NCBI RefSeq assembly: GCF_001677475.2
Contig: NZ_CP015229.1
DNA: 64,000 nucleotides
DNA from: Escherichia coli
Lineage (GTDB): Bacteria > Pseudomonadota > Gammaproteobacteria > Enterobacterales > Enterobacteriaceae
Strand: one strand, 5' to 3'
The notes beneath the pieces were generated by a model. It was not told where the DNA came from and did no database searches. It saw only the letters and a list, made by a program, of their open reading frames with translations. Below are positions 43,438 to 64,000 of this stretch, in pieces; within the stretch, counting starts at the first letter, position 1, and every line of letters starts with the position of its first letter. A program made the position numbers and the translations under genes.

Positions 43438-44075
43438 TGAATATTGTGGTGCTTATTTCCGGCAACGGAAGTAATTTACAGGCAATTATTGACGCCTGTA
43501 AAACCAACAAAATTAAAGGCACCGTACGGGCAGTTTTCAGCAATAAGGCCGACGCGTTCGGCCTTGAACGCGCCCGCCAGGCGGGTATTGCAACGCATAC
43601 GCTCATCGCCAGCGCGTTTGACAGTCGTGAAGCCTATGACCGGGAGTTGATTCATGAAATCGACATGTACGCACCCGATGTGGTCGTGCTGGCTGGTTTT
43701 ATGCGCATTCTCAGCCCGGCGTTTGTCTCCCACTATGCCGGGCGTTTGCTGAACATTCACCCTTCTCTGCTGCCGAAATATCCCGGATTACACACCCATC
43801 GTCAGGCGCTGGAAAATGGCGATGAAGAGCACGGTACATCGGTGCATTTCGTCACCGATGAACTGGACGGTGGCCCGGTTATTTTACAGGCGAAAGTCCC
43901 GGTATTTGCTGGTGATACGGAAGATGACATTACCGCCCGCGTGCAAACCCAGGAACACGCTATTTATCCACTGGTGATTAGCTGGTTTGCCGATGGTCGT
44001 CTGAAAATGCACGAAAACGCCGCGTGGCTGGATGGTCAACGTCTGCCGCCGCAGGGCTACGCTGCCGACGAGTAA
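43437..44075 (+). CDS. purN: GAR transformylase
   Basis: 212-aa ORF; ATG overlaps purM stop by 1 nt. Confidence 0.94.
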
Positions 44076-44246
44076 TACCCCCGTAATTAAAGCGCCAGCT
44101 CTGCCGCTGGCGTTTTTCAATTCACCTGTAAATCGCAAGCTCCAGCAGTTTTTTTCCCCCTTTTCTGGCATAGTTGGACATCTGCCAATATTGCTCGCCA
44201 TAATATCCAGGCAGTGTCCCGTGAATAAAACGGAGTAAAAGTGGTA

Positions 44247-47859
<3,613 letters not shown>

Positions 47860-47865
47860 TACTTT

Positions 47866-47892
47866 GCGGGCCGACGAGAAATGTCGGCCCGC
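47866..47892. terminator. GC-rich stem-loop between convergent ppx and pdeF
   Basis: gcgggccgacgagaaatgtcggcccgc inverted repeat; weak T-tract. Confidence 0.55.
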
Positions 47893-47897
47893 ATTAT

Positions 47898-50141
47898 TCA
47901 GGCACTTTCGCGAATGGGTTCGATTTCATTCAACGTATCAATTAACGGCTGCGGCTTACCAATAAGATAACCCTGCATATAATCGATCCCCAAAGAGAGC
48001 ACCGCCTCGCGGATCTCTTCGTTTTCAACGTACTCTGCCACTACCAGCATTTTCTTCATTCGCGCCAGGTGGCAAATCGATGCCACTATCTGATAATCCA
48101 GACTATTTGACACAATATTGCGGATAAAACTGCCGTCAATTTTAAGCAGATCGGCATTCACATTTTTAAGCCGCGCATAGCTGGCGTAGCCGGTGCCGAA
48201 ATCATCAATCGCAATCTGGCAGCCTAATTCCTGAAGATGCTGCAAGGTGATTTGCGCCTGCTTAACATTGGTCAGAGCATTACTTTCGGTGACTTCAAAA
48301 ATAAGTTGCCACGCTTCAATCTGATATTTAGCCAGCAACTGACTGACTTCAACAGGAAAACGAGCCTGACATACCGAGGTTGGAGACAGATTAATAGCAA
48401 AACGGTGAGCGGGCATCTTCGCTCTGTTTTCAGCCATAAATTGCAGCGTATGCTCAATGACCCACATGTCGATACTCGACGATAAACCAAATTCGTGCGC
48501 GACCGGCAAGAAGCTATCGGGGCTGATCAATTCATCATTCTCACCTTTCATGCGCAGAAGAATTTCATGGTAAACATCACCACGCATACCGGTAATCGGC
48601 TGGGCCATCAGGAAAAAATGGTTGTGTTCCAGCGCCTGCTGTAGTCGATTCATCATCGCGACTTTATCTTTCAATTCGCGTTGCAAATACATTGCCCCGC
48701 GACGCTGCATATTTTCCGGGGCGTTGGTCACGATGGAAAGTTCGGCGACCGTATTTAGCTCTCCCAGCAGCAGGTAGATATGATTCACTGGCGAGCGCAC
48801 ATAGCAGTAACTGACGCCAATCTGCGGTTGCATCGGCATGCCATCCCAAAAGAAACGAAATTGCTTGAGATGGCTATCCAGTGCGGTAATGCGCTCCTGG
48901 TGCGATTCTGTATTCAGTCGCAGCGCGAGATCGTTACCCGAAAGCTGATAAACATCTTCACCCGGTTCCAGCAAGGGTGACAGCCAGTGAGAAAGTTTTT
49001 GCTTGTATTGAATCCGCAGCATGATGCCATAGTTCTTAACCAGCATTTCCATGCCAGGGATGCGTAAATAACAAAGCGCAGACCAGGGGGCATCACGCAA
49101 CGCGCGATTCAGGGCGCGAACATTTGGCAGATGAACCACCGGGTCCACATACGCAAGCCGCTGAATGCGTCTGACTACCGTTCTCTGACGGGTTGCCAGT
49201 ACAGCCATATAATTGACAATAAAAGAGAATACCAGATAACTGGAGGAGGTTATGGTCAGCTGCGTGGTATAGCCAGGATAAATGGGAATGTAATTTTGAT
49301 AGCTGTGGATGCTGATCATCAACACGACCGCCCAGAGCAGCGAAATCAGCTTATAACCATAGCGCATCGCTCCCCACATCATCAGGGGCAGCAATAATGA
49401 CAAGGTATAGTTGGTGCTAAAAATTGTGCTTTTTTCATTTAACGGCATGCATAACAGCAACAGTAAAGCACCTAATGCCAGTAGCCAGAGTGCGAACTCT
49501 TTTTTGGTGACTTTGACATCAACCTGCTGTTTTAATTGCGAATAATAGCTACGTAAATAAAATGGATTTCGCACTACCCGAATGATGAAGTAGCACAGCG
49601 GGACACCGATCAGATTACCCACCAGTAAGGCCTGATAATTGATTAAAGTCCCGAGGTTAAAAGGCATGACACCGACCAGATTTTCTCTACTCGCCAGTAA
49701 TCCTACAAATGCGGCAAACTGGAAAAGTATCAGAAACAGCGTTGCAGGAAACACAATCTGCCAGAATATACGCTGGGAAATTAAACGGGTATCACCATGT
49801 GAAACGTTGTTACGCCGGGGAGTAAAGACCCTGTAACCGCCCCAACAGAGAATGATAATGATAATAAAATTAGCCGTTAACGAGAGCGTTTCGTAAAAAC
49901 CCAGCTCTGAATATTTGCGGACAAAAATCCCTAAGGCGATCCCTGGCAATGCCGCCCAGCTGAAAAACATCATCATGCTGATCATCAGTGCCAGAGGCAG
50001 ATAAAAGAGAAAAACCTCACCGGAAGAAATATGCGCGAAAGTATTGATGTGGCCGAAAATGGGCAAGATTAAAGAAGGCAGGAACAGCGGAAGCCCCCAC
50101 CATTTATCACGTATTTTTATATAGGTTGCATTCAGTTTCAT
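47898..50141 (-). CDS. pdeF: c-di-GMP phosphodiesterase PdeF (MASE1 - degenerate GGDEF - EAL)
   Basis: 747-aa ORF; hydrophobic N-terminal half and C-terminal EAL domain (QPITGMRGDVYHEILLRM...). Confidence 0.92.
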   Translation of the reverse strand: MKLNATYIKIRDKWWGLPLFLPSLILPIFGHINTFAHISSGEVFLFYLPLALMISMMMFFSWAALPGIALGIFVRKYSELGFYETLSLTANFIIIIILCWGGYRVFTPRRNNVSHGDTRLISQRIFWQIVFPATLFLILFQFAAFVGLLASRENLVGVMPFNLGTLINYQALLVGNLIGVPLCYFIIRVVRNPFYLRSYYSQLKQQVDVKVTKKEFALWLLALGALLLLLCMPLNEKSTIFSTNYTLSLLLPLMMWGAMRYGYKLISLLWAVVLMISIHSYQNYIPIYPGYTTQLTITSSSYLVFSFIVNYMAVLATRQRTVVRRIQRLAYVDPVVHLPNVRALNRALRDAPWSALCYLRIPGMEMLVKNYGIMLRIQYKQKLSHWLSPLLEPGEDVYQLSGNDLALRLNTESHQERITALDSHLKQFRFFWDGMPMQPQIGVSYCYVRSPVNHIYLLLGELNTVAELSIVTNAPENMQRRGAMYLQRELKDKVAMMNRLQQALEHNHFFLMAQPITGMRGDVYHEILLRMKGENDELISPDSFLPVAHEFGLSSSIDMWVIEHTLQFMAENRAKMPAHRFAINLSPTSVCQARFPVEVSQLLAKYQIEAWQLIFEVTESNALTNVKQAQITLQHLQELGCQIAIDDFGTGYASYARLKNVNADLLKIDGSFIRNIVSNSLDYQIVASICHLARMKKMLVVAEYVENEEIREAVLSLGIDYMQGYLIGKPQPLIDTLNEIEPIRESA

Positions 50142-50268
50142 AGATGCTCAGCAGAATCCCCCACATCCTGAAGGAGGTGTATTCAGACAGGCATCCCACC
50201 TGACTTCGAATGATGATTATTCATCACTATAGAGAGCATTAATTCTAAGTGTCATATGAAAGTTCCAA

Positions 50269-50282
50269 TTGATATATATCAA
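50269..50282. promoter_or_regulatory. FNR binding site upstream of pdeF
   Basis: ttgatatatatcaa is a perfect TTGAT-N4-ATCAA palindrome ~130 bp upstream of the pdeF start codon. Confidence 0.7.
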
Positions 50283-50492
50283 ACAAAATAACCCTGATTA
50301 ATGAATTATTACGTTTATCATGTTAATTCATCATTATTACATCATCATTGTAAATAATTAAATTAACTTCCATAACATTAAAATATGTATCCACTGACGC
50401 TTTTTTACATAACGAAGAATTGACCATTTTGTCCTGTTGTGCCTTAATGTAAGTACCGTCCACTGCGTGGGACATACTTCAAGGAACCTTTT

Positions 50493-50684
50493 GTGAGTCA
50501 GGCAACCAGTATGCGAAAACGACACCGATTTAACAGTCGCATGACCCGTATCGTACTGCTCATCAGCTTTATCTTCTTCTTTGGCCGTTTTATCTACTCG
50601 TCCGTCGGTGCATGGCAGCACCATCAGAGCAAAAAAGAAGCTCAGCAATCCACACTCTCCGTCGAATCACCGGTACAACGTTAG
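50493..50684 (+). CDS. yfgG: 63-aa small membrane protein YfgG
   Basis: ORF encoding MSQATSMRKRHRFNSRMTRIVLLISFIFFFGRFIYSS... with one TM helix; flanked by very AT-rich DNA. Confidence 0.8.
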   Translation: MSQATSMRKRHRFNSRMTRIVLLISFIFFFGRFIYSSVGAWQHHQSKKEAQQSTLSVESPVQR

Positions 50685-50994
50685 CGGTTACCTTCTCCAC
50701 TTTCACAGAACATAACGGCACCTCGCTGTCGGATGCTTTTGCTCTTTGGGATTATCAAAGCGGCAGATATTCTTTCATCTTAAATTTTACGTCTTTGTCC
50801 TGACTGATGTTTATCCTGTTTGGCTGCGAAATAAATATAAAATTAATACATATGTTTTAATGATGTATTTTTATAAATTATTTTCCACGTGAATTTTAAT
50901 AAATTTAATCTATTCCTTTATACGCAATACATTTACTTTCCTCTTTTGATGATCTTAAATGTCTTATTTTTCGTAATGTGTATAACAAGGAATA

Positions 50995-51513
50995 GTGATG
51001 AAATTTAAAAAATGTCTTCTGCCTGTGGCAATGTTAGCGTCATTCACTCTGGCAGGATGCCAGTCAAATGCTGATGATCATGCCGCCGATGTTTATCAAA
51101 CCGATCAACTGAATACCAAACAAGAAACTAAAACCGTTAATATTATTTCCATTCTTCCCGCAAAAGTTGCCGTAGACAACTCCCAAAATAAACGAAACGC
51201 ACAAGCCTTCGGCGCGCTTATTGGTGCAGTCGCTGGCGGTGTAATCGGCCACAACGTGGGGTCTGGCAGCAATTCCGGAACGACGGCAGGTGCAGTTGGC
51301 GGCGGAGCTGTAGGCGCGGCAGCAGGTTCTATGGTGAATGATAAAACCTTAGTGGAAGGTGTTTCTCTAACGTATAAGGAAGGCACCAAAGTGTATACCT
51401 CCACCCAGGTGGGTAAAGAGTGCCAGTTTACGACAGGTTTAGCCGTTGTTATTACCACGACGTATAACGAAACGCGTATTCAGCCAAATACGAAATGTCC
51501 TGAAAAGAGCTAA
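50995..51513 (+). CDS. yfgH: outer-membrane lipoprotein YfgH (glycine-zipper)
   Basis: 172-aa ORF; lipobox LAGC; Gly-rich zipper GAVAGGVIGHNVGSGSNSGTTAGAVGGGAVGAAAGS. Confidence 0.88.
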   Translation: MMKFKKCLLPVAMLASFTLAGCQSNADDHAADVYQTDQLNTKQETKTVNIISILPAKVAVDNSQNKRNAQAFGALIGAVAGGVIGHNVGSGSNSGTTAGAVGGGAVGAAAGSMVNDKTLVEGVSLTYKEGTKVYTSTQVGKECQFTTGLAVVITTTYNETRIQPNTKCPEKS

Positions 51514-51528
51514 TGATCAGGAGGAGTC

Positions 51529-52068
51529 ATGAAGAAAGTTTTTCTTTGCGCCATCTTAGCCTCCTTAAGCTATCCGGCTATCGCCTCATCATTGCAGGAT
51601 CAACTCTCGGCTGTCGCAGAAGCGGAACAGCAAGGTAAAAATGAAGAGCAAAGGCAGCATGACGAATGGGTCGCGGAGCGCAACAGGGAAATCCAGCAAG
51701 AGAAGCAACGTCGCGCAAACGCCCAGGCCGCGGCTAATAAAAGAGCGGCAACGGCAGCGGCGAATAAGAAAGCTCGTCAGGATAAACTGGACGCCGAAGC
51801 CTCTGCGGACAAAAAACGCGATCAAAGTTATGAAGATGAGCTACGCAGCTTAGAGATTCAGAAACAAAAACTGGCGCTGGCAAAAGAAGAAGCCCGCGTT
51901 AAGCGAGAAAACGAATTTATCGATCAGGAACTGAAGCACAAAGCTGCGCAAACCGATGTGGTGCAATCTGAAGCTGACGCAAACAGGAATATGACTGAGG
52001 GCGGTCGAGATCTGATGAAAAGCGTGGGCAAAGCAGAAGAGAACAAATCGGACAGCTGGTTTAACTAA
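51529..52068 (+). CDS. yfgI: signal-peptide protein YfgI, highly charged predicted coiled coil
   Basis: 179-aa ORF; signal peptide then K/E/R/Q/A-rich low-complexity sequence. Confidence 0.88.
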   Translation: MKKVFLCAILASLSYPAIASSLQDQLSAVAEAEQQGKNEEQRQHDEWVAERNREIQQEKQRRANAQAAANKRAATAAANKKARQDKLDAEASADKKRDQSYEDELRSLEIQKQKLALAKEEARVKRENEFIDQELKHKAAQTDVVQSEADANRNMTEGGRDLMKSVGKAEENKSDSWFN

Positions 52069-52105
52069 GCGATGTCAGTAATTTCAAGCCTATGATTCGT
52101 GAGTA

Positions 52106-52140
52106 TAAAAAACCCTCTGTAGTAACAGAGGGTTTTGTTC
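52106..52140. terminator. bidirectional intrinsic terminator (yfgI / guaA)
   Basis: aaaaaaccctctgtagtaacagagggttttgtt: A-tract, stem, T-tract between convergent genes. Confidence 0.8.
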
Positions 52141-52160
52141 ATTCATAGTGCAGGGTCAAA

Positions 52161-53738
52161 TCATTCCCACTCAATAGTCGCTGGTGGCTTGCCGCTGATG
52201 TCATACACCACGCGGGAAATACCGTTCACTTCATTGATAATGCGGTTGGAAACGCGACCGAGGAAGTCATACGGCAGGTGCGCCCAGTGTGCGGTCATAA
52301 AGTCGATGGTTTCGACAGCACGCAGAGAAACAACCCAGTCATACTTACGACCATCGCCCATTACACCAACGGAACGTACCGGCAGGAAGACGGTGAACGC
52401 CTGGCTGACTTTGTCGTACAGGTCCGCTTTACGCAGTTCTTCAATAAAGATGGCGTCAGCACGGCGCAGCAGGTCGCAGTACTCTTTCTTCACTTCGCCC
52501 AGTACACGAACGCCGAGGCCTGGTCCCGGGAACGGGTGACGGTACAGCATGTCGTACGGCAGGCCCAGCTCCAGACCAATCTTACGCACTTCGTCTTTGA
52601 ACAGCTCTTTCAGCGGTTCAACCAGCCCCATCTTCATCTCTTTCGGCAGGCCGCCCACGTTGTGGTGAGATTTGATGACGTGTGCTTTACCGGTTGCAGA
52701 CGCCGCAGATTCGATAACGTCAGGGTAGATAGTACCCTGCGCCAGCCACTTCACGTCTTCCAGTTTCAGCGCTTCTTCATCGAATACTTCAACGAAAACG
52801 CGCCCGATGATTTTACGTTTTGCTTCCGGATCGTTTTCGCCAGCCAGCGCTGACAGGAAGCGATCTTCTGCCGGAACGTGAACAATATTGAGACCAAAGT
52901 GATCGCCAAACATATCCAGAACCTGCTCTGCTTCGTTGAGGCGCAGCAGGCCATTGTCGACGAATACGCAAGTCAGGTTTTTACCGATAGCGCGGTGCAG
53001 CAGCATTGCGGTTACGGAGGAATCCACACCACCAGAGAGGCCGAGGATGACTTTATCGTCGCCTACCTGCTCGCGGATGCGAGCTACAGCATCGTCGATA
53101 ATTTTCGCTGGCGTCCACAGGGCTTCACACTGGCAGATATCACGCACAAAACGCTCCAGCATGCGCATACCCTGGCGGGTGTGAGTCACTTCCGGGTGGA
53201 ACTGTACGCCATAGAAGCGTTTTTCTTCGTTAGCCATAATGGCAAACGGGCAGCTTTCGGTGCTGGCTACGGTGACGAAGTCGGACGGGATAGCGGTAAC
53301 TTTATCGCCGTGGCTCATCCAGACATCGAGCAGCGGTTTACCGTCTGCGGTCAGCGCATCTTCGATACCGCGAACCAGGGCGCTGTCGTTTACGACTTCA
53401 ACCTGCGCGTAGCCAAATTCACGTTCGTTAGAGGCTTCAACGTGACCGCCCAACTGCATTGCCATGGTCTGCATACCATAGCAAACGCCGAATACCGGTA
53501 CGCCTGCTTCAAAAACATACTGCGGCGCACGCGGGCTGTTTTCTTCGGTGGTGCTTTCCGGGCCGCCGGAAAGAATAATGCCGCTTGGATTGAAGTCACG
53601 AATTTGTGCTTCTGTCACATCCCATGCCCACAGTTCGCAGTAAACGCCCAGCTCACGCACGCGGCGCGCAACCAGTTGAGTATACTGGGAACCGAAGTCC
53701 AGAATGAGGATGCGATGCTTATGAATGTTTTCCGTCAT
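52161..53738 (-). CDS. guaA: GMP synthase (glutamine-hydrolysing)
   Basis: 525-aa ORF; class-I glutamine amidotransferase domain and ATP pyrophosphatase SGGVDSS motif. Confidence 0.95.
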
Positions 53739-53806
53739 TGACGCTTATTCCGAGGCAAGTGAAACAGATAATATAAATCGCCCGACATGAAGTCGGGCGA
53801 AGAGAA

Positions 53807-55273
53807 TCAGGAGCCCAGACGGTAGTTCGGGGACTCTTTAGTAATGGTCACGTCGTGAACGTGGCTTTCCTGAATGCCCGCACCGCTGATACGTACAAAC
53901 TCCGCTTTAGTACGCAGTTCGTCGATAGTACCACAGCCGGTCAGACCCATACAGGAGCGCAGGCCGCCCATCTGCTGGTGAATGATCTCTTTCAGGCGAC
54001 CTTTATAAGCTACGCGACCTTCGATACCTTCCGGCACCAGTTTGTCGGCTGCGTTATCGCTCTGGAAATAACGGTCAGAGGAACCTTTGGACATCGCGCC
54101 CAGGGAACCCATACCACGGTACGATTTGTAAGAACGGCCCTGGTAGAGTTCAATTTCACCCGGAGATTCTTCAGTACCCGCCAGCATGGAACCCACCATT
54201 ACCGCGCTTGCGCCAGCGGCGATAGCTTTGGCGATGTCACCGGAGAAGCGAATACCACCATCTGCGATAACCGGAATACCTGTGCCTTCCAGCGCTTCAA
54301 CTGCGTCAGCAACGGCAGTGATCTGCGGAACACCTACGCCAGTAACGATACGAGTCGTACAGATAGAACCAGGGCCGATACCGACTTTAACCGCGCTGCA
54401 ACCAGCTTCTGCCAGAGCGCGTGCACCTGCAGCTGTTGCCACGTTGCCGCCGATGATTTGCAGATCCGGATATTTAGCACGGGTTTCACGGATACGTTGC
54501 AGTACACCTTCTGAGTGACCGTGGGAGGAGTCTATCAGCAGAACGTCAACGCCTGCGGCAACCAGCGCATCAACACGCTCTTCGTTACCCGCACCTGCGC
54601 CAACCGCTGCACCAACACGCAGACGGCCTTGCTCGTCTTTACAGGCGTTCGGTTTACGTTCCGCTTTCTGGAAGTCTTTCACGGTGATCATGCCGATCAG
54701 GTGGAATTCGTCATCAACCACCAGCGCTTTTTCAACGCGTTTTTCGTGCATTTTTGCGAGCACAACTTCACGGGCTTCACCTTCACGCACGGTTACCAGA
54801 CGTTCTTTCGGCGTCATGTAAACGCTAACCGGCTGGCTCAGGTCGGTAACAAAACGCACGTCACGACCGGTGATAATACCCACCAGTTCGTTTTCTTCGG
54901 TAACGACCGGATAGCCCGCAAAACCGTTACGCTCGGTCAGTTCTTTCACTTCGCGCAGCGTCGTGGTTGGCAGAACAGTCTGCGGATCAGTCACCACACC
55001 AGATTCGTGTTTTTTCACACGGCGAACTTCTTCTGCCTGGCGTTCAATGGACATGTTTTTGTGGATAAAGCCGATACCGCCTTCCTGAGCCAGAGCAATA
55101 GCCAGGCGCGCTTCCGTTACGGTATCCATTGCTGCGGAAAGCATAGGTATATTCAGACGAATAGTTTTCGTCAGCTGGGTGCTGAGGTCAGCAGTATTCG
55201 GCAGAACAGTAGAGTGAGCAGGAACGAGGAGAACGTCGTCAAACGTCAGAGCTTCTTTAGCGATACGTAGCAT
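53807..55273 (-). CDS. guaB: IMP dehydrogenase
   Basis: ORF 53807..55342 trimmed to 488 aa ([21 protein letters not shown]...); CBS pair and catalytic IGPGSICTT motif. Confidence 0.95.
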
Positions 55274-55404
55274 GGGCAATATCTCGACCAGAGTGGTTAA
55301 TAAATATTGCCGCGGCATTATACAGAGCGTAACCGATTGCATCTACCCCTTTTTGCAAAAAATGCTTGCTATCCCCGAAGGGCGGGTTACTATCGACTGA
55401 ATAA

Positions 55405-56811
<1,407 letters not shown>

Positions 56812-56878: not shown

Positions 56879-59800
56879 TTACTGGAAGCAGGTAACCAGA
56901 CCCGGTTTATTCATTAGCGTGATACTACAATCCTGTGCTCCAGTGCCTTCGTCCATCCCACACTGTTGAGAGGACAAATAAGGAAAACTTGGTGAAGACG
57001 GCCATCCCAGTGAATTAAAAACAGTATGCAACAACTCTAATTCATTGTATGTCGGTGCATTTTCTATGCTGCCACACTGCCTTGCGATATCCCATTTACT
57101 GGCATCAATGATATGTGCAGAAGCCCAGTTTTCGTAGTTAATAAACGGTGAGGATACGGGATTAGCCCCGGACGGCAATTCCGTCGTTAACAACGGTCGA
57201 TGTAGCGATTTACCATTCACCACTACCGTGTCTGCCATATGTCCCCAAAAGTGCGCCGAGGAAACATTCGGGCTGGTTGGCACCGTAAAAATAGCGTCCA
57301 GCGTGTCTGTCGCGGAAGCGTAATTAGCCAGAGTAACCGTCAGTGGCGTTTTATAACCAGGGGTATTATCCTGGCGGAGCGTAAAACTTGCCGTCCCATC
57401 AGCGCCTGTCATGCCACTAATGGTATTACCGCTTTCACTCAGCGTAATAGCCGAACCAGATAACGGCTGAACGATGAGATCGTCCATCGCCACCACATCA
57501 CCATACAACGTTGCCCCAGCGTTACGCGGCGATGCCTCACCACGTTTCAAAGTAAACTCCACATTCGGCACCGTATTCCCGGCGCTGTCTTTCACCGTCA
57601 CGGTAACGGGCATGGCTTCGCCTTTTTTCACTTTCGCCGCCTGGCTGTCAGCATCAAACGCTGTTGAGGTCAGTGTGACGCTGGAAACCGTCGCGCGCGC
57701 AGACACCAGGCACGCCTGATAAGCGGTATTAACATTCAATGTCGTCAAGCCATTTTTCATATCGAGCGACTGATTTTTGCCATCTGTAGTCTTATCCTGC
57801 GCCCACCAGCCATAATAAACTGACCAGCCAGTTTCCGTCGTAAAGGTGTTATTGGGATAACGTTGATACAGTGACTTCATATCGCTGAGCAACGGTTGTC
57901 GTGCTTCTTCACAGGGGCTGAGGCTGGCATTTGCTTTGGTTGTTGCTGAGAAATAGGGCCAGTCCTCATTATTGTTACTGATTTTATTCACCCCGGAGGT
58001 CGATGGCAGCTCTTTCCACAATTTCGGTCGTTCAAAGACGGTTCCATTTGCCGCTGTCACCGTTTCTGGCATATGGCCCCAGTAGTTGGCATCCGGAGTG
58101 TCAGGGCTGGTGACCACGGTAAATATCAGGTCCAGGTTTGACGTGATCTGCGGATCTTGTGCAAGCGAGACCGTAAACGGCGTTGCCAGGCCAGTGGTGT
58201 TGTTTTGCGTAACATTGAACGTCACAGTGCCATCACTGCCGGTAAAGCCAAGCCATTTTGCCGTATCCTGAGCAAAGGAAATGCTGGCTGCTGTCGGTGT
58301 GACGACATTTACAATAAGATCATCTGCCGAAGTAGATGAGGGCTTATTCCCTGTACGGTTTTTCGACTGCGCCCGCTGAAGCGTCACGCTCTCACCACTC
58401 ACCAGGTTGCCATTTTGGTCTTTTACTGTCACGACTAACGGGATTGTCTCGCCCTTTTTCGCCGATGCCGAAGGTGTGCCACCGTTGCTGGCGGTTTTCG
58501 TCTCATCAAATGCGGCTGACGTGAGAGTCACGCTTGATGATAAAGCGTGAGGCTGCGTCAGACAAAGCATCAGAGCAGACGGATAGAGAGAAGATGAAGG
58601 TTGTCCTGTTTTCAGGTTAATGACCTGATAATACCAGGACGTGCCACTAAGAGTAAGCTCATAAGTCCACCAGTTTCCGGCTGTTGTCGGCACCCCCAGA
58701 TCTGTCGTTATCGCCCCGTTAGGGTGATCGTTATAAAGCCCCTGCAACTCGCTGAGGCGCGGTTGATATTCCAGTGGGCAATCTGCCGTCGCTTTTTGAG
58801 TGTTGGATATATATGACCATGTCTCATTATTACCATTTACCGAGCTCCCCGAAGTTGCTTCCGCTGCCAGTAATGGGCGCTTGAAGGTCACGCCTGCCGA
58901 GCTGGTAAACGTTTCCGGCATATGGCCCCAGTATTTCGCTTTTGGCGAATCCGGGCTGGTTATCACCGTGAAAATGACATCCAGCGTGGCGCTTTTTGAG
59001 GTGTCGCGCATCAATGTTGCAGTGAGCGGGGTTGCGAACCCATAACTGCCGTTTTGGCTGACCTCAAACGTAGCTTTACCATCGCTTCCTGTCTTCAGAA
59101 GAGCCTGCGTCCCATCCTCATACAAGATTGACGTTACCCCGGTAGGCTCCAAAGGCACGATGGTAAGATCATCTGCAGAGGCATTGTACGCAGCTTTAGC
59201 GCGATTCAGCGCAGTCCCACGTTTAAGGTTAAAGCTGGCACCTGGCAGTGGATTGCCTGCGCTATCTCGCACCGTAACCGTCATCGGGATAACCTCTCCC
59301 TTCTTCGCCGTTGCACTGGGCCTGCCATCATTGCTCGCCGTTTTCGTTGCATCCTCTGCCGTTGAGGTCATCTCAATAGAAGCCGCCTCTGGATGAGGGT
59401 TTACCAGGCACAGCATTAATGCCGAGGTGGTTGAAGACGCTCTTCCACTTGATCCATTTAACAGAGAAATATATTGATCGTACCACTTACCCGCATATGC
59501 CACCACGTCGTAAGCCCACCAGTAGCTATTCACTGGAATACCCAGATCGGTCTTTATCGCACGACTTGGATGTTCGTCGTACAATGCCTGGAGTTCGCTT
59601 AACAGCGGTTGATAATGTACATCGCACCCGCTTTTATCTGCATCCCCCTTTGTTGCCGATTTCAACAATCCCCATGTTTCATTGTCTTCTATGACTCCAG
59701 ATTCTGACGATGTTTCGCTCTTGAGTAGTGGACGCCTGAAGGCAATCCCGGAACGCGTAGTGAACGTTTCCGCCATATGCCCCCAGTAACTTGCCAGGGG

Positions 59801-62800
59801 AGTATCCGGGCTGGTTATCACAGTAAACATCACCGGTAATTTGTTGGATTCCAGGCTCGACTGATAGGCCTGAGCGTACACATTGGTTACCAGGCCTATA
59901 GAATCATCCTGCTTTACCGTAAACGTGGCCGTTCCATCCGCGCCCGTCACCGCATAAAGCAAGATTGATGAACTATCCATTCTTGCCGACGTCCCCGCGG
60001 CGTTGATTACGGTGATAGTTCTGTTCAACATCAGTGTATTCTGGCGATTTGTCGATCCTTCACGTTTGAGAATAAACGGAACATTTGGTACGACATTTCC
60101 CTGCGCATCTTTGGTCACCACGCGAATCACCGCGTCGTCACCTTTTTTCCGTTTTAGTGCGCTGAGGGTTTCGTCAACTTTGACAAATTGTGTCGAATCG
60201 TTCGCTTCGACAATAATTTGGCTGGTCATCGCCACTGGGGTAGCCCGACAGCTTAGCAGACCTATACTGCTTGGCATGATCTCCGATTCATAACCAGTCT
60301 TCAACGAAACCGCTTTAAAATTAAAGGCTTGAGTATAATAGGCGACTGCCGTACTGGAGATATAGGCACGTGATACAGGCCATCCCGTAACGTCATGTAT
60401 TGGCGTGTAACCTTCATCGGCATACAATGACTCAAGTTCATTGTCAGCCGGGACATATCCTGCACCGCAACCATTTACAGATGTGTTGTTCGACTGGTCC
60501 GGCGAGAACAGTGACCATTCCTCTCCATCTTCCTGAAAATAGTTTCGACTAGCTGTAACGGTAAGCTCATCTTGCAATAACGGTCTTTTATAAATAAGCC
60601 CGCCAGCACCGGTCATCGTTTCGGCCATATGCCCCCAGAATTTTGCTTTAGGGGTATCGGGGCTGGTTATCACCGTAAAGACCACCGGAAGCATTGATTT
60701 TACGTTATTATCTGTATCCAGCATGGCGGTCAGTTCGGTTTTTAAACCTGTGGTATTGTCCTGTTTCAGTGCAAGTGTTGTCGTACCATCTGCGCCGGTA
60801 ACGCCATAAATCAGTGCTGTTGTTGAGGAAAAATTACTCTGCGTATTACCCCAGGCATCCGTCACGATGAGCGCGCCTGCTGTCACCGTTGTAGACGCAT
60901 TTGCCCGATTGACGCTAAGGTTACGTTTAAGCGTAAACGCGGTATTTCCCACCGGGTTACCCTGCGCATCTTTAGTGGTCACGCGAACCACGACTTCTTC
61001 CCCTTTTTTCGCTTTGACAACATTATTCGTACTGTCAAATTTTGTAGGGTCCGCAGCCTCAAGAACGATTTGGCTTGCCTTAACGATCGGCGTCGTCTGG
61101 CAGGTAAGCAGTTCTTTTGTGGCCGATGGAATTATCGAACTGGTACCTGAACTGAGATTGACGGCCTTGAAGTCACGCTGTTCCAGACTACTGCTGCCTG
61201 TCGTGCTGGTAAGGTAACTTGAGGCGACGGGCCAGCCCTGAACCGTTTTCATCGCATTGCCGCGGTTAGCTTCATACAATGACTCCAGCCCAACCTGAGA
61301 GGGAACATATTCACTACCGCAACCATTAGAGGATGTGCTTGTCGCCTGAGTTTGGGTAAATTGCGCCCAGTCCTCATTCTCTTCTGCAATCGCTGTTCGA
61401 CCCGACGTACTGGATAACTCTTTCAACAATAATGGGCGCTTAAAGACCGTTCCATCCGCAGCCGTCACCGTTTCCGGCATATGTCCCCACATTTTCGCTT
61501 TATTGCTGTCCGGGCTGGTGACAACGGTAAAAATGGTATCGAGGGTCGCTTTTTTCGTTGTGTCTGAATAGAGCGCGGCGGTCAGCGACGTTTTCGTGCC
61601 ATGGGTATCCGGGCGGGTAATAGTGAGAATTTTAGTGCCATCGCTGCCGGCCATCGCGCTGTATGCTGCGGCGGTATCATTGAGCGAAGTTTCATCCGCC
61701 AGGCCACTATTGATCACAACCGGCGCAACCAGCGCATCACCGCTACCGGCAATGTGTTTTTCGTTTGATCGGGTATAACCATCGCCACGCTTCAGGGTAA
61801 AAGGCATATCACCCAATGGATTGCCCTGAGCATCTTTTACCGTCACCTTCACCTGTAGCGTTTCGCCTTTTTTCAGCTTCGCCGCATTTGCTGCCGCGTT
61901 CCACTGCGCCGGGTCCACCACTTCCAGCGTAATGCTGTTGGCAGGATTGTTAGCCGTCGTCAGGCAACTGACATAAACCGCCGTGCTACCGCCAACGGTC
62001 CGCGCGCCATCGTTGAGGGCTATGGTGTAGTAATGCGGCACCTGATCCGCGGGCGAACTGCTCCAGTAGGGCTGACGCTGCGTTGGCCAACCGTGTACCG
62101 TTTGAACGGCGTTACCGCTGTAAGCATCATAGAGCGCGTTAAGCTGGGAACGGCGTGGGAGCATATTGGCACCACAGCCACCTTTACTGGTGCTGGAAGT
62201 GTTGGCCTGGCTAACGCGCGACCACACTTCGTTATTTTCCGTTAATGTGCCGTCCGGGCTGGACACTTCCGCAGCCAGCCGGGATCGGGCAAAGGTTAAT
62301 GCATCGACGGTAATCGTCTCATCCATATGCCCCCACATCTGCGCGCCAACCGCATCCGGACTGGTGAGCGTAGTGAAAATCACATTGTAATTAACAGTAT
62401 TGGGAATATAGGAGTTTACAGGCGCAATATTCAGCGGCGTCGCTAAGCCCACACCTTGCGGTTGCTTAATTTCCACAGTAGCAAAACCCTGCGCATCCGT
62501 AGTACCTGCATAGACTAAAGACGGTTGCGATGTTCCGTAGAGCGTGCCATTCATCTCGATTGCGCCGCGGGTTGGATCATCGAAACCCGTGGTCTGCCCC
62601 TGACGATTTTTCCCCATATCTTTCGTGATGGTGAACGCGGTATACGGCACGGGCGCATTATTCAAGGCATTAAAGGTGCGTACCGTCATGGTAATCGTTT
62701 CACCCACTTTCGCCTGCGCTCTGCTGCTTGTGGAAACATCATGATCGGTGGTCGCAGCAATCTGGGCGACCATCTCATTGCCCGAACAAGAAAGGTAGTT

Positions 62801-64000
62801 TTGCTTAAAGCCGGAATAGGTGTCGATGTTGCCCGTGGCCAGGTTCACCGACGCATGCGACGTCTCTTCCACCGCACTAAGATACGCTTTTTGCAACGTT
62901 GGCCAGCCATATTCGGTGCCGATGACATTGGCTGGATGTGCGGCAAACAAACTGTGCAATGAGCTTTGGCTCGGAATATGACCTAAACCACACTCAGCCT
63001 GCATACTGCTATTCTGATCAAACAGCGCCCAGTCTTCGTTATTTTCCCGCACTGCTCCCAGTTCGTTGTCGGTTTCATCCGCCAACCGTGGGCGTTTAAA
63101 GATATTGTTCGCTTCAATAATGCCTAACATATGTCCCCACATCCGCGCTTTGTCGGAATCAGGGCTGGTGATCACCGTAAAAATAACGTCTTTCTCATCC
63201 GAAGCGGTAAAATCACTGCGCATTTTCGCGGTGATGTGAGTTTTCACCCCCACTCCGCCTGGCTGGGTCAGCGTCAGAGAGGCCTCTCCGTTAGCATCAG
63301 TGATCCCTTCATAGATATGGGCGTCAACTTTGCGAACGTTACTGCCGCCATCAATTTGTACCGGGTGCGTCTCCCACGCGGCGTCAGTTTGATTCTTACG
63401 GTTAACGCCGTCATCCAGATGCAGCGAAAAGTAGTAGTAAGCCAGCGGCTGATCGTTGTTCTTGCTATCGGTAATCGTCAGGCGTAAAGAAGCCTCTTCC
63501 CCCACCTTTACTTTCATCGCTTTTATCGTCGAATCATAACTGCCCGGCGTCAGTACCAGCTTCGGTTCAACATCGGGCGCTTCTTTATCGACACAGCTCA
63601 CAATAAACGTCGTATCGTCCGGTTTTTGCGCTTCGCTGCGGTTCGAAACATCCGCCGCATGGTGCTGGCCGCTCATCCCCGCCAGTGATGACCAGTAGTA
63701 GTTCCCCTGCATCGGCCAACCAGCCACATCCTGCACTGACGTTGGCACCACCGTCGCCAGCGCACCGAACTGACGCATTCCGGGCAAAATGTCGCAATGT
63801 TTATCCGCGCCGCTCCAGGTAAAGGTGGACCAGGTTTCATTGTGATCGTTAACCGTACCGTCTTCATTATCGACTTCCGCCGCCAGTTTTGGTCGACTAA
63901 AAGTGTAATCACGGGCCTTCAGCGTATCGGGCATATGACCCCACATTGTAGCCTGCGGGACATCCGGGCTGGTGAGGACGGTAAAGATCACTGCCGTTTC
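56879..64000 (-). CDS. giant tandem-repeat surface protein, RatA/RatB-like (bacterial Ig-like Big_1 domains alternating with a conserved Cys-containing module); C-terminal >2370 aa only, 5' end beyond window
   Basis: Single minus-strand ORF with no stop from the window edge to TAA at 56879; nine ~805-855 bp repeats each encoding FTV(I/V)TSPD..WGHM..NE.W..C..LY..GWP then KKGE..VTV.D..GN..F.LKR..G.DGT..F; codon usage like host; not present at this site in K-12. Confidence 0.85.
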   Translation of the reverse strand, partial: ETAVIFTVLTSPDVPQATMWGHMPDTLKARDYTFSRPKLAAEVDNEDGTVNDHNETWSTFTWSGADKHCDILPGMRQFGALATVVPTSVQDVAGWPMQGNYYWSSLAGMSGQHHAADVSNRSEAQKPDDTTFIVSCVDKEAPDVEPKLVLTPGSYDSTIKAMKVKVGEEASLRLTITDSKNNDQPLAYYYFSLHLDDGVNRKNQTDAAWETHPVQIDGGSNVRKVDAHIYEGITDANGEASLTLTQPGGVGVKTHITAKMRSDFTASDEKDVIFTVITSPDSDKARMWGHMLGIIEANNIFKRPRLADETDNELGAVRENNEDWALFDQNSSMQAECGLGHIPSQSSLHSLFAAHPANVIGTEYGWPTLQKAYLSAVEETSHASVNLATGNIDTYSGFKQNYLSCSGNEMVAQIAATTDHDVSTSSRAQAKVGETITMTVRTFNALNNAPVPYTAFTITKDMGKNRQGQTTGFDDPTRGAIEMNGTLYGTSQPSLVYAGTTDAQGFATVEIKQPQGVGLATPLNIAPVNSYIPNTVNYNVIFTTLTSPDAVGAQMWGHMDETITVDALTFARSRLAAEVSSPDGTLTENNEVWSRVSQANTSSTSKGGCGANMLPRRSQLNALYDAYSGNAVQTVHGWPTQRQPYWSSSPADQVPHYYTIALNDGARTVGGSTAVYVSCLTTANNPANSITLEVVDPAQWNAAANAAKLKKGETLQVKVTVKDAQGNPLGDMPFTLKRGDGYTRSNEKHIAGSGDALVAPVVINSGLADETSLNDTAAAYSAMAGSDGTKILTITRPDTHGTKTSLTAALYSDTTKKATLDTIFTVVTSPDSNKAKMWGHMPETVTAADGTVFKRPLLLKELSSTSGRTAIAEENEDWAQFTQTQATSTSSNGCGSEYVPSQVGLESLYEANRGNAMKTVQGWPVASSYLTSTTGSSSLEQRDFKAVNLSSGTSSIIPSATKELLTCQTTPIVKASQIVLEAADPTKFDSTNNVVKAKKGEEVVVRVTTKDAQGNPVGNTAFTLKRNLSVNRANASTTVTAGALIVTDAWGNTQSNFSSTTALIYGVTGADGTTTLALKQDNTTGLKTELTAMLDTDNNVKSMLPVVFTVITSPDTPKAKFWGHMAETMTGAGGLIYKRPLLQDELTVTASRNYFQEDGEEWSLFSPDQSNNTSVNGCGAGYVPADNELESLYADEGYTPIHDVTGWPVSRAYISSTAVAYYTQAFNFKAVSLKTGYESEIMPSSIGLLSCRATPVAMTSQIIVEANDSTQFVKVDETLSALKRKKGDDAVIRVVTKDAQGNVVPNVPFILKREGSTNRQNTLMLNRTITVINAAGTSARMDSSSILLYAVTGADGTATFTVKQDDSIGLVTNVYAQAYQSSLESNKLPVMFTVITSPDTPLASYWGHMAETFTTRSGIAFRRPLLKSETSSESGVIEDNETWGLLKSATKGDADKSGCDVHYQPLLSELQALYDEHPSRAIKTDLGIPVNSYWWAYDVVAYAGKWYDQYISLLNGSSGRASSTTSALMLCLVNPHPEAASIEMTSTAEDATKTASNDGRPSATAKKGEVIPMTVTVRDSAGNPLPGASFNLKRGTALNRAKAAYNASADDLTIVPLEPTGVTSILYEDGTQALLKTGSDGKATFEVSQNGSYGFATPLTATLMRDTSKSATLDVIFTVITSPDSPKAKYWGHMPETFTSSAGVTFKRPLLAAEATSGSSVNGNNETWSYISNTQKATADCPLEYQPRLSELQGLYNDHPNGAITTDLGVPTTAGNWWTYELTLSGTSWYYQVINLKTGQPSSSLYPSALMLCLTQPHALSSSVTLTSAAFDETKTASNGGTPSASAKKGETIPLVVTVKDQNGNLVSGESVTLQRAQSKNRTGNKPSSTSADDLIVNVVTPTAASISFAQDTAKWLGFTGSDGTVTFNVTQNNTTGLATPFTVSLAQDPQITSNLDLIFTVVTSPDTPDANYWGHMPETVTAANGTVFERPKLWKELPSTSGVNKISNNNEDWPYFSATTKANASLSPCEEARQPLLSDMKSLYQRYPNNTFTTETGWSVYYGWWAQDKTTDGKNQSLDMKNGLTTLNVNTAYQACLVSARATVSSVTLTSTAFDADSQAAKVKKGEAMPVTVTVKDSAGNTVPNVEFTLKRGEASPRNAGATLYGDVVAMDDLIVQPLSGSAITLSESGNTISGMTGADGTASFTLRQDNTPGYKTPLTVTLANYASATDTLDAIFTVPTSPNVSSAHFWGHMADTVVVNGKSLHRPLLTTELPSGANPVSSPFINYENWASAHIIDASKWDIARQCGSIENAPTYNELELLHTVFNSLGWPSSPSFPYLSSQQCGMDEGTGAQDCSITLMNKPGLVTCFQ

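Follow-up and report, generated by a model that had tools for sequence, protein, structure and literature searches.

The closest described relatives of the gene analysed here are RatA and RatB, encoded on Salmonella enterica's CS54 island (NF011843 and NF011842, 'DUF823/DUF824 repeat adhesin') and sharing with our protein its BIg21 and InvE_AD domains, which used to be known as DUF823/DUF824. The Salmonella island is also laid out alike, with sinH (sivH) and sinI next to xseA. In E. coli, a CS54-like pathogenicity island has been noted, a version from which shdA and ratB are reported to be missing (PMC3739510). InvE of Yersinia pseudotuberculosis (PDB 5n40) has an adhesion domain that is homologous to ours by sequence and by fold, including the FxVITSPD...WG.M start and the preceding Ig-like domain. 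The depositors of 5n40 are said to describe this adhesion domain as C-type-lectin-like and free of Ca2+- or carbohydrate-binding motifs. InvE, an inverse autotransporter, has a single adhesion domain at its end, whereas the RatA-like protein has nine, interleaved with Ig-like domains, and no IAT barrel in the parts scanned (see below). Inverse autotransporters of the intimin/invasin group share with it a run of Ig-like domains ending in a C-type-lectin-like adhesion domain (unit U9 below).

Two further systems are relevant to changes in module number. Like the RatA-like protein, streptococcal alpha C protein, staphylococcal Bap and SasG and enterococcal Esp are large tandem-module surface adhesins whose module number differs between isolates. 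Their repeats are near-identical in DNA, change in number frequently and in both directions, and are true assembly hazards; by contrast, RatA-like units have 40-55% identity, arrays of nine strongly predominate, and the only changes seen are rare losses. The other system is lacI, whose spontaneous deletions have short-repeat endpoints, to go by the citation of Albertini et al. 1982 in PMC2621351. Deletions of the lacI type resemble those described below in removing hundreds to thousands of bp between exact repeats of about 10-20 nt, one copy of which is kept. Unlike the lacI repeats, the RatA-like microhomologies are not accidental, being codons of a conserved peptide that recurs once per module, so that most deletions take whole modules and keep both the reading frame and the domain boundaries.

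We analysed a window of 64,000 nt from E. coli (contig NZ_CP015229.1), at the end of which one minus-strand frame stays open from 56882 to 64000, with its stop codon at 56879-56881, and leaves the window; the GTG given as a 'start' at 63991 reflects no more than where the window is cut. The encoded protein scores 4711.5 bits with the NCBIfam equivalog model NF011844 ('RatA-like protein'), whose cutoff is 3870, and aligns to positions 308-2683 of the 2683 in the profile. Since this match begins at position 308, residues 1-307 (signal peptide, N-terminal region and first BIg21 domain) lie beyond the window end, and the gene extends about 921 nt past it. The Salmonella RatA and RatB models gave 1613 and 1918 bits, below their cutoffs of 3700 and 4079, and their lengths of 1860 and 2435 residues, compared with 2683 for the RatA-like model, imply another number of modules. 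In E. coli N3, a gene of 8040 nt annotated 'adhesion domain-containing protein' is 96.8% identical to our region and lies between xseA and the sinI-sinH pair, which is followed by der. The order xseA, ratA-like, sinI, sinH, zinc-ribbon gene, der holds in 10 E. coli loci. In the window, an xseA-sized ORF (55435-56811) directly adjoins the gene, while sinI and sinH fall past the window end. The gene is thus the known RatA-like adhesin, the third gene of the sinH-sinI-ratA island, which sits as an insertion between xseA and der. RatA-like genes are sometimes mislabelled as the unrelated RatA ribosome-association toxin.

All matches to the periodic motif CATATGNCCCCA lie within this frame. The motif has nine exact plus-strand matches (57236, 58070, 58919, 59774, 60626, 61478, 62324, 63128 and 63932), whose spacings of 834, 849, 855, 852, 852, 846, 804 and 804 nt are each divisible by 3, and one additional off-period match with a single mismatch at 59494. 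Dinucleotide-preserving shuffles gave a mean of 0.97 matches and reached 10 in 0 of 100 cases. The first-pass annotation had reported nine recurrences in one giant gene, which is correct and includes the right nine sites, although five of its positions were off by 1 nt. Direct-repeat analysis recovered the same nine copies as a 57-nt family and also bore out the report of a second motif of equal period, GGGCTGGTNATCACCGT... / GGGCTGGT..ACCGT..AA, which recurs in register with CATATGNCCCCA. Tandem Repeats Finder found no repeats, a result that is uninformative here, the maximal period being 500 and the units too diverged.

The periodicity has a simple origin in the protein. CATATGNCCCCA is the reverse complement of TGG-GGN-CAT-ATG, the codons of W-G-H-M, and GGGCTGGT..ACCGT..AA, once reverse-complemented, gives the IFTVxTSPD codons; both peptides mark the starts of adhesion domains, directly after the preceding Ig-like domain. 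Because Trp and Met have single codons, most of the 12-base motif is dictated by the WGHM peptide. GGGCTGGT agrees with Chi at only 6-7 of 8 bases, unless the preceding codon is NCC. The periodic signal is wholly accounted for by a curated adhesin family with an old nine-module architecture; this repeat architecture is already held in Pfam and NCBIfam, and the array is no new kind of element.

With unit boundaries anchored on the conserved peptide IFTVxTSPD..A..WGHM, the array in the window consists of eight units of 268-285 residues followed by a terminal adhesion domain of 137 residues (Table 1). Pfam finds a strict alternation of InvE_AD (PF05689; E down to 7.5e-34) and BIg21 (PF05688; E down to 1.4e-23). 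A scan of the C-terminal 1173 residues returned four BIg21 and four InvE_AD domains with E<=5e-16, along with a fifth InvE_AD of which the query, by where it starts, includes only the C-terminal part; residues 1-380 of a full-length homologue carry an extra BIg21 before the first InvE_AD, and precomputed Pfam annotations of all homologues agree with this BIg21/InvE_AD content. No match to IAT_beta (PF11924) was found in the C-terminal 1173 residues of the window protein or in residues 1-380 of the full-length homologue; the barrel domain is carried by the neighbouring SinH. Full-length homologues contain exactly nine WGHM motifs, so the entire array lies inside the window. For the whole protein we infer a signal peptide and about 210 residues, followed by nine BIg21-InvE_AD pairs with an adhesion domain last.

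Table 1. Coordinates of the RatA-like gene, its units and the short inter-unit matches in the window
Feature	Position	Strand	Basis or remark
RatA-like adhesin gene, 3' 7.1 kb	56879..64000	-	single open frame, terminal stop; NF011844; N3 gene
U1, 268 aa	63185..63988	-	InvE_AD adhesion domain + BIg21; IFTVxTSPD/WGHM anchors, Pfam alternation
U2, 268 aa	62381..63184	-	motif-anchored boundaries
U3, 282 aa	61535..62380	-	motif-anchored boundaries
U4, 284 aa	60683..61534	-	motif-anchored boundaries; Pfam
U5, 284 aa	59831..60682	-	modelled unit; AlphaFold2 and 5n40 match
U6, 285 aa	58976..59830	-	motif-anchored boundaries; Pfam
U7, 283 aa	58127..58975	-	motif-anchored boundaries; Pfam
U8, 278 aa	57293..58126	-	motif-anchored boundaries; Pfam
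U9, 137 aa	56882..57292	-	terminal InvE_AD adhesion domain only, protein C-terminus; Pfam
18 nt GTGATAACCAGCCCGGAT, V-I-T-S-P-D codons	U6 59804..59821; partner U7 58949-58966	-	longest inter-unit match
14 nt GTGATAACCAGCCC, homologous to P0029 crossover	U5 60660..60673; partner U6 59808-59821	-	
15 nt CTGGGGGCATATGGC, WGHM codons	U5 60624..60638; partner U6 59772-59786	-	

Each module, about 283 residues long, opens with an adhesion domain of InvE type, which is C-type-lectin-like, and closes with a BIg21 Ig-like domain. An AlphaFold2 model of U5, built from an alignment of 38 unit copies, has a mean pLDDT of 88.6 and a pTM of 0.81; of the solved structures, 5n40 is nearest to it in fold (rmsd 2.2 A across 150 columns, 33% identity). 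The unit's second half matches Ig-like domains in fold, for example those of intimin D00-D0. A phmmer search against 5n40 gave E=1.6e-14, aligning FNVITSPDSAQASMWGNMAETLT with the unit start, and two cysteines of the InvE-type domain are invariant in 38 of 38 unit copies. Judging from this domain content, the protein would display nine lectin-like adhesion domains on Ig-like spacers at the cell surface, in a multivalent arrangement. Export would run through Sec, and, RatA itself being without a beta-barrel, SinH may carry it to the cell surface; Rat-like proteins have been proposed as substrates of a co-encoded inverse autotransporter of the SinH type, compare ZirT/ZirS (Heinz et al., PMC4943183).

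How alike are the units? Pairwise comparison, which the first-pass annotation had asked for, gave 25-49% identity in protein and 40-55% in codon-aligned DNA. For amino acids with four-fold-degenerate codons that two units have in common, third bases coincide 34% of the time, where codon usage predicts 29%; synonymous divergence between units is near saturation. The longest exact inter-unit match in the window is 18 nt (GTGATAACCAGCCCGGAT), while shuffled controls reach 15, and the 28 inter-unit exact matches of at least 12 nt are all in frame, mostly with equal offset in both units. As a microhomology, the 18-nt site is predicted to be prone to deletion. Each unit is closest to the same-position unit of other alleles and not to its neighbours, a pattern of positional orthology in which U1 keeps 97-98% identity in close alleles and 78-80% in distant ones, and identity of the central units U5-U7 falls to 46-70% across alleles. 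The array was born by ancient tandem duplication, and there is no sign of concerted evolution among its units. Their low identity and exact tracts of at most 18 nt make the units poor substrates for RecA and no hazard for assembly.

A detectable copy of the gene is present in about 1740 of 5426 complete E. coli genomes. In eight sampled genomes, the annotated gene measures 8040-8082 nt, with alleles 74-97% identical in DNA, while a divergent allele in O145:H28 and in a baboon isolate has 6420 nt and seven units. All 47 complete genomes taken evenly down the rankings of the two allele classes contain the full nine-unit span. A wider view came from a search of about 5.8 billion proteins, of which the best 120 homologues were analysed. 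These comprise proteins of 6, 7, 8, 9 and 11 units, which upholds the earlier suggestion that copy number and protein length vary between isolates. Every large cluster (208 to 4065 members) consists of nine-unit proteins of 2680-2697 residues. Small clusters hold proteins of about 2396-2425 residues (8 units), 2111-2174 residues (7 units) and 1864 residues (6 units), and a single cluster, P0035, has 3264 residues and 11 units. In both E. coli and E. albertii, arrays of nine units predominate.

Outside a single in-frame gap, the short variants are 98-100% identical to a nine-unit allele, the variant's parent being inferred as the best-scoring nine-unit cluster representative. The gaps measure 268-287, 512-569 or 816 residues and were placed by global alignment with a cheap long gap, plain BLASTP having given misleading long paralogous alignments. 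Distinguished by parent, unit and breakpoint, they amount to about 30 distinct losses, spread over E. albertii and several allele classes of E. coli and counted on representatives of 90%-identity clusters, some of which may share ancestry. Other, non-unit deletions and truncations were found too, and some of the odd-sized gaps may be frameshifts or contig ends. The best 120 homologues showed no recently gained unit. P0035, which belongs to a divergent lineage, has two extra units that are only 51-54% identical to their nearest paralogues and hence stem from an old duplication. Length variants are rare and appear to be losses only.

The breakpoints cluster at the start of the unit. Seventeen of the first 25 analysed fall within a unit's first 20 residues, and in about 20 of the roughly 30 events the breakpoint is inside the first 27. 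For 19 events parental DNA was available; in 12 of them the inferred breakpoint falls in an in-register exact match (8-20 nt) that ranks first or second in length for its unit pair. In P0026, P0052, P0089 and P0113, the inferred breakpoint lies off any clear microhomology in the DNA of the surrogate parent, and the P0052 event has protein-level support only.

Four junctions were mapped in real contigs. The P0049-type junction lost 852 nt, with the crossover in CTGGGGGCATATG (13 nt), which is the 13-nt version of the CTGGGGGCATATGGC site in the window and gives a one-unit deletion. P0077 lost 1704 nt with the crossover in TGGGGGCATATGCCTGAAAC (20 nt). In P0029, for which L013 was compared with L002, L001 and the window, 852 nt were lost and the crossover falls in GTGATAACCAGCCC (14 nt). 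P0088 lost 2448 nt with the crossover in CCAGCCCGGA (10 nt). At all four, informative sites change cleanly from the left to the right parent, and one copy of the repeat is kept. The two sites fused in P0088 are not in register: an unrelated SSPD codon run, 40 residues into U3, is linked to the U6 TSPD, which favours the microhomology itself over a pairing of homologous units. Two of the 5426 complete genomes (FDAARGOS_1298 and BEN5202) carry the P0049-type junction, and about 558 have its two sites in the undeleted arrangement; the P0077 junction is absent from the 5426. The index also places P0049 in 65 blocks of the collection, and the contigs read include 24 with this variant.

Whole modules are lost on occasion. 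Within the tandem array, these in-frame deletions cross over in an exact inter-unit match of 10-20 nt, usually in the codons of the junction motif, leaving one copy of the matched stretch behind. The route could be replication slippage, template switching or single-strand annealing, all of them RecA-independent forms of short-homology deletion. Deletions in E. coli with less than 25 nt of homology have been described as RecA-independent and ascribed to replication template switching (PMC2621351; see also PMC5426353). Taken together with junctions of 10-20 nt, this statement points to a short-homology deletion, probably RecA-independent, rather than RecA-mediated unequal crossing-over, and it is homology length and literature that suggest the independence from RecA. 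We are rather confident of the overall reading, in which the motifs are the footprint of nine RatA-like modules that are occasionally lost at microhomologies, by what would be a RecA-independent route. Between repeats of 10-20 nt that lie 0.85-2.5 kb apart, deletion is expected to be very infrequent, so selection may shape the variants seen. Two lessons follow: the periodic DNA signal should not be taken as recombinogenic or as difficult to assemble, and E. coli and E. albertii do have alleles of the adhesin that differ in length, which arise at predictable sites of 10-20 nt. Such variants matter for typing, for the design of vaccine antigens from the SinH/RatA island and for the reading of 'mutations' of this gene in evolution studies.

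The first-pass annotation had instead regarded the repeats as substrates of RecA-dependent unequal recombination and as an assembly hazard. If the units were similar enough for RecA-dependent homologous recombination, copy number would shift by whole units and most breakpoints would lie at homologous positions of two units, both of which we see. Against this, the units are too diverged in DNA (40-55% identity), exact matches reach no more than 18 nt in the window and 20 nt at the best of the verified junctions, short of the approximately 25 nt given in PMC2621351, and P0088 is out of register. An array turned over through RecA should have uninterrupted identity of at least about 25 nt and show gains as well as losses among close relatives, reciprocal expansions being a prediction of unequal recombination; the array has no such tract, and about 30 losses stand against no recent expansion among the 120 best-scoring homologues. 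We thus consider a RecA-type origin of the variants improbable. It is also conceivable that the shorter genes are artefacts of assembly or gene calling, produced by the collapse of repeats in short reads, given that short-read assemblies (Logan, ENA) supplied many of the variants as singletons and that some short proteins are truncated or have odd-sized gaps. Yet no k-mer of at least 19 nt is common to units in the window, and none above 20 nt is common to units at all, so that de Bruijn graphs at k>=21 cannot join them. The P0049-type junction, moreover, stands in two complete chromosomes and recurs across the collection, and deletion lengths divide exactly by 3, with informative sites forming clean left/right patterns. 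Of all the alternatives, we hold artefact to be the least credible.

The likeness of the motifs could also be maintained by concerted evolution, that is, gene conversion between units, and not by selection on the protein. On its side are the first 25 codons of the units, where synonymous identity is 0.465 against 0.29 expected, and the codons ACC-AGC-CCG (TSP) and CAT (His of WGHM), which are almost invariant over 38-52 unit copies. However, the four-fold sites of Thr3, Val4 and Gly17 vary freely within the same motif, the nearest relative of a unit is the same-position unit in other alleles, overall synonymous identity between units is near chance, and the single codons of W and M let the peptide force most of the 12 nt. 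Gene conversion therefore seems to us highly unlikely, and on the evidence above it was rejected along with RecA-type recombination and assembly artefact. With short-homology loss of old modules as the preferred reading, the near-fixed choice of ACC-AGC-CCG and CAT at module boundaries is the one unexplained detail. We would give only slim odds to the idea that the nucleotide conservation of the TSPD codons ACC-AGC-CCG-GAT and of the WGHM codons is itself selected, as a built-in microhomology for shedding adhesion modules in frame; if true, it would provide the surface adhesin with a slow, deletion-only form of length or antigenic variation. The bias can be seen at the Thr of TSPD, which is ACC in 50 of 52 copies, while ACC makes up about one third of the gene's Thr codons.

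The nine units (U1-U9) of the adhesin each begin with conserved TSP or TSPD and WGHM peptides, and across the window and five homologous loci (L001, L004, L005, L007, and L008) we found that synonymous sites are locally conserved within the first 22 codons of each unit (see the table below). The Thr of TSP is encoded by ACC in 50 of the 52 unit copies, while ACC accounts for about one third of all Thr codons of the ratA-like gene. Likewise, the Ser of TSP uses AGC or AGT exclusively in these copies, the Pro is CCG in most of them, and 49 of 52 have CAT for the WGHM His. The TSP and WGHM His codons are the sole outliers among 33 conserved columns, and nearby four-fold sites (Thr3, Val4, and Gly17) are free to vary. 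The commonest deletion crossover sites coincide with these synonymously conserved TSP/WGHM nucleotides.

Examples of localised synonymous conservation at unit starts
Feature	Coordinates	Sequence
Synonymously conserved site	59804-59821	window
Synonymously conserved site	60660-60676	window
Synonymously conserved site	63962-63973	window

A natural deletion of 2448 nt is carried by the variant P0088 (locus L015, 1501-7095), in which SSPD codons within the U3 adhesion domain are fused to the TSPD that opens U6. The reading frame is kept, but the register between units is not, leaving a hybrid unit of 319 residues. The homologous protein P0035 (3264 aa, from a 16.7 kb Logan contig), which shares ~62-68% identity with the E. 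coli alleles, contains 11 units. Its additional pair of units is U5- and U6-like (51-54% identity), showing that the array was enlarged in the past by duplication of unit pairs.

Divergence between alleles is mosaic along the array. Against the ATCC 25922 allele, identity is 94-98% in U1-U3 and U9 of the window but only 68-70% in U5-U7. When units U4-U7 (window 58127-61534) were set against L004, L005, and L007, U5 of the ST131-type alleles proved to be closer to U4 of the window (52-54%) than to its U5 (46-47%). This pattern suggests that diversifying selection or inter-allelic exchange acts mid-array. Among 5426 complete E. coli genomes, identity peaks at just 98.2% over the ppk-xseA flank (window 44000-56800) and at 96.8% over the adhesin gene (56879-64000), and thus the lineage of the source strain is absent from this collection; it may be a Shigella or a divergent branch of Escherichia.

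In E. coli S14 (NZ_CP107114.1, 4809921-4821057), the ST131-type ratA-like gene is interrupted by a ~3 kb insertion bearing ISEcp1 and blaCTX-M-15. The annotation of PKF11 (L002, 6001-14043) lists the ratA-like gene as a pseudogene that contains an internal stop, and sinH of O145:H28 12E115 (L009, 19734-21915) has a frameshift. The sinH-sinI-ratA island is undergoing decay in some lineages.

The name RatA is a source of confusion: the RatA adhesin of CS54 type has no relation to the RatA (YfjG) toxin. A preprint on ST131 evolution discusses recurrent mutations in a 'ratA-like toxin' (bioRxiv 10.1101/2023.12.11.571174); if this is the present adhesin, the recurrently mutated gene encodes a surface adhesin and not a toxin. 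One source labels the adhesin variant P0026 'ribosome association toxin A-like protein'.
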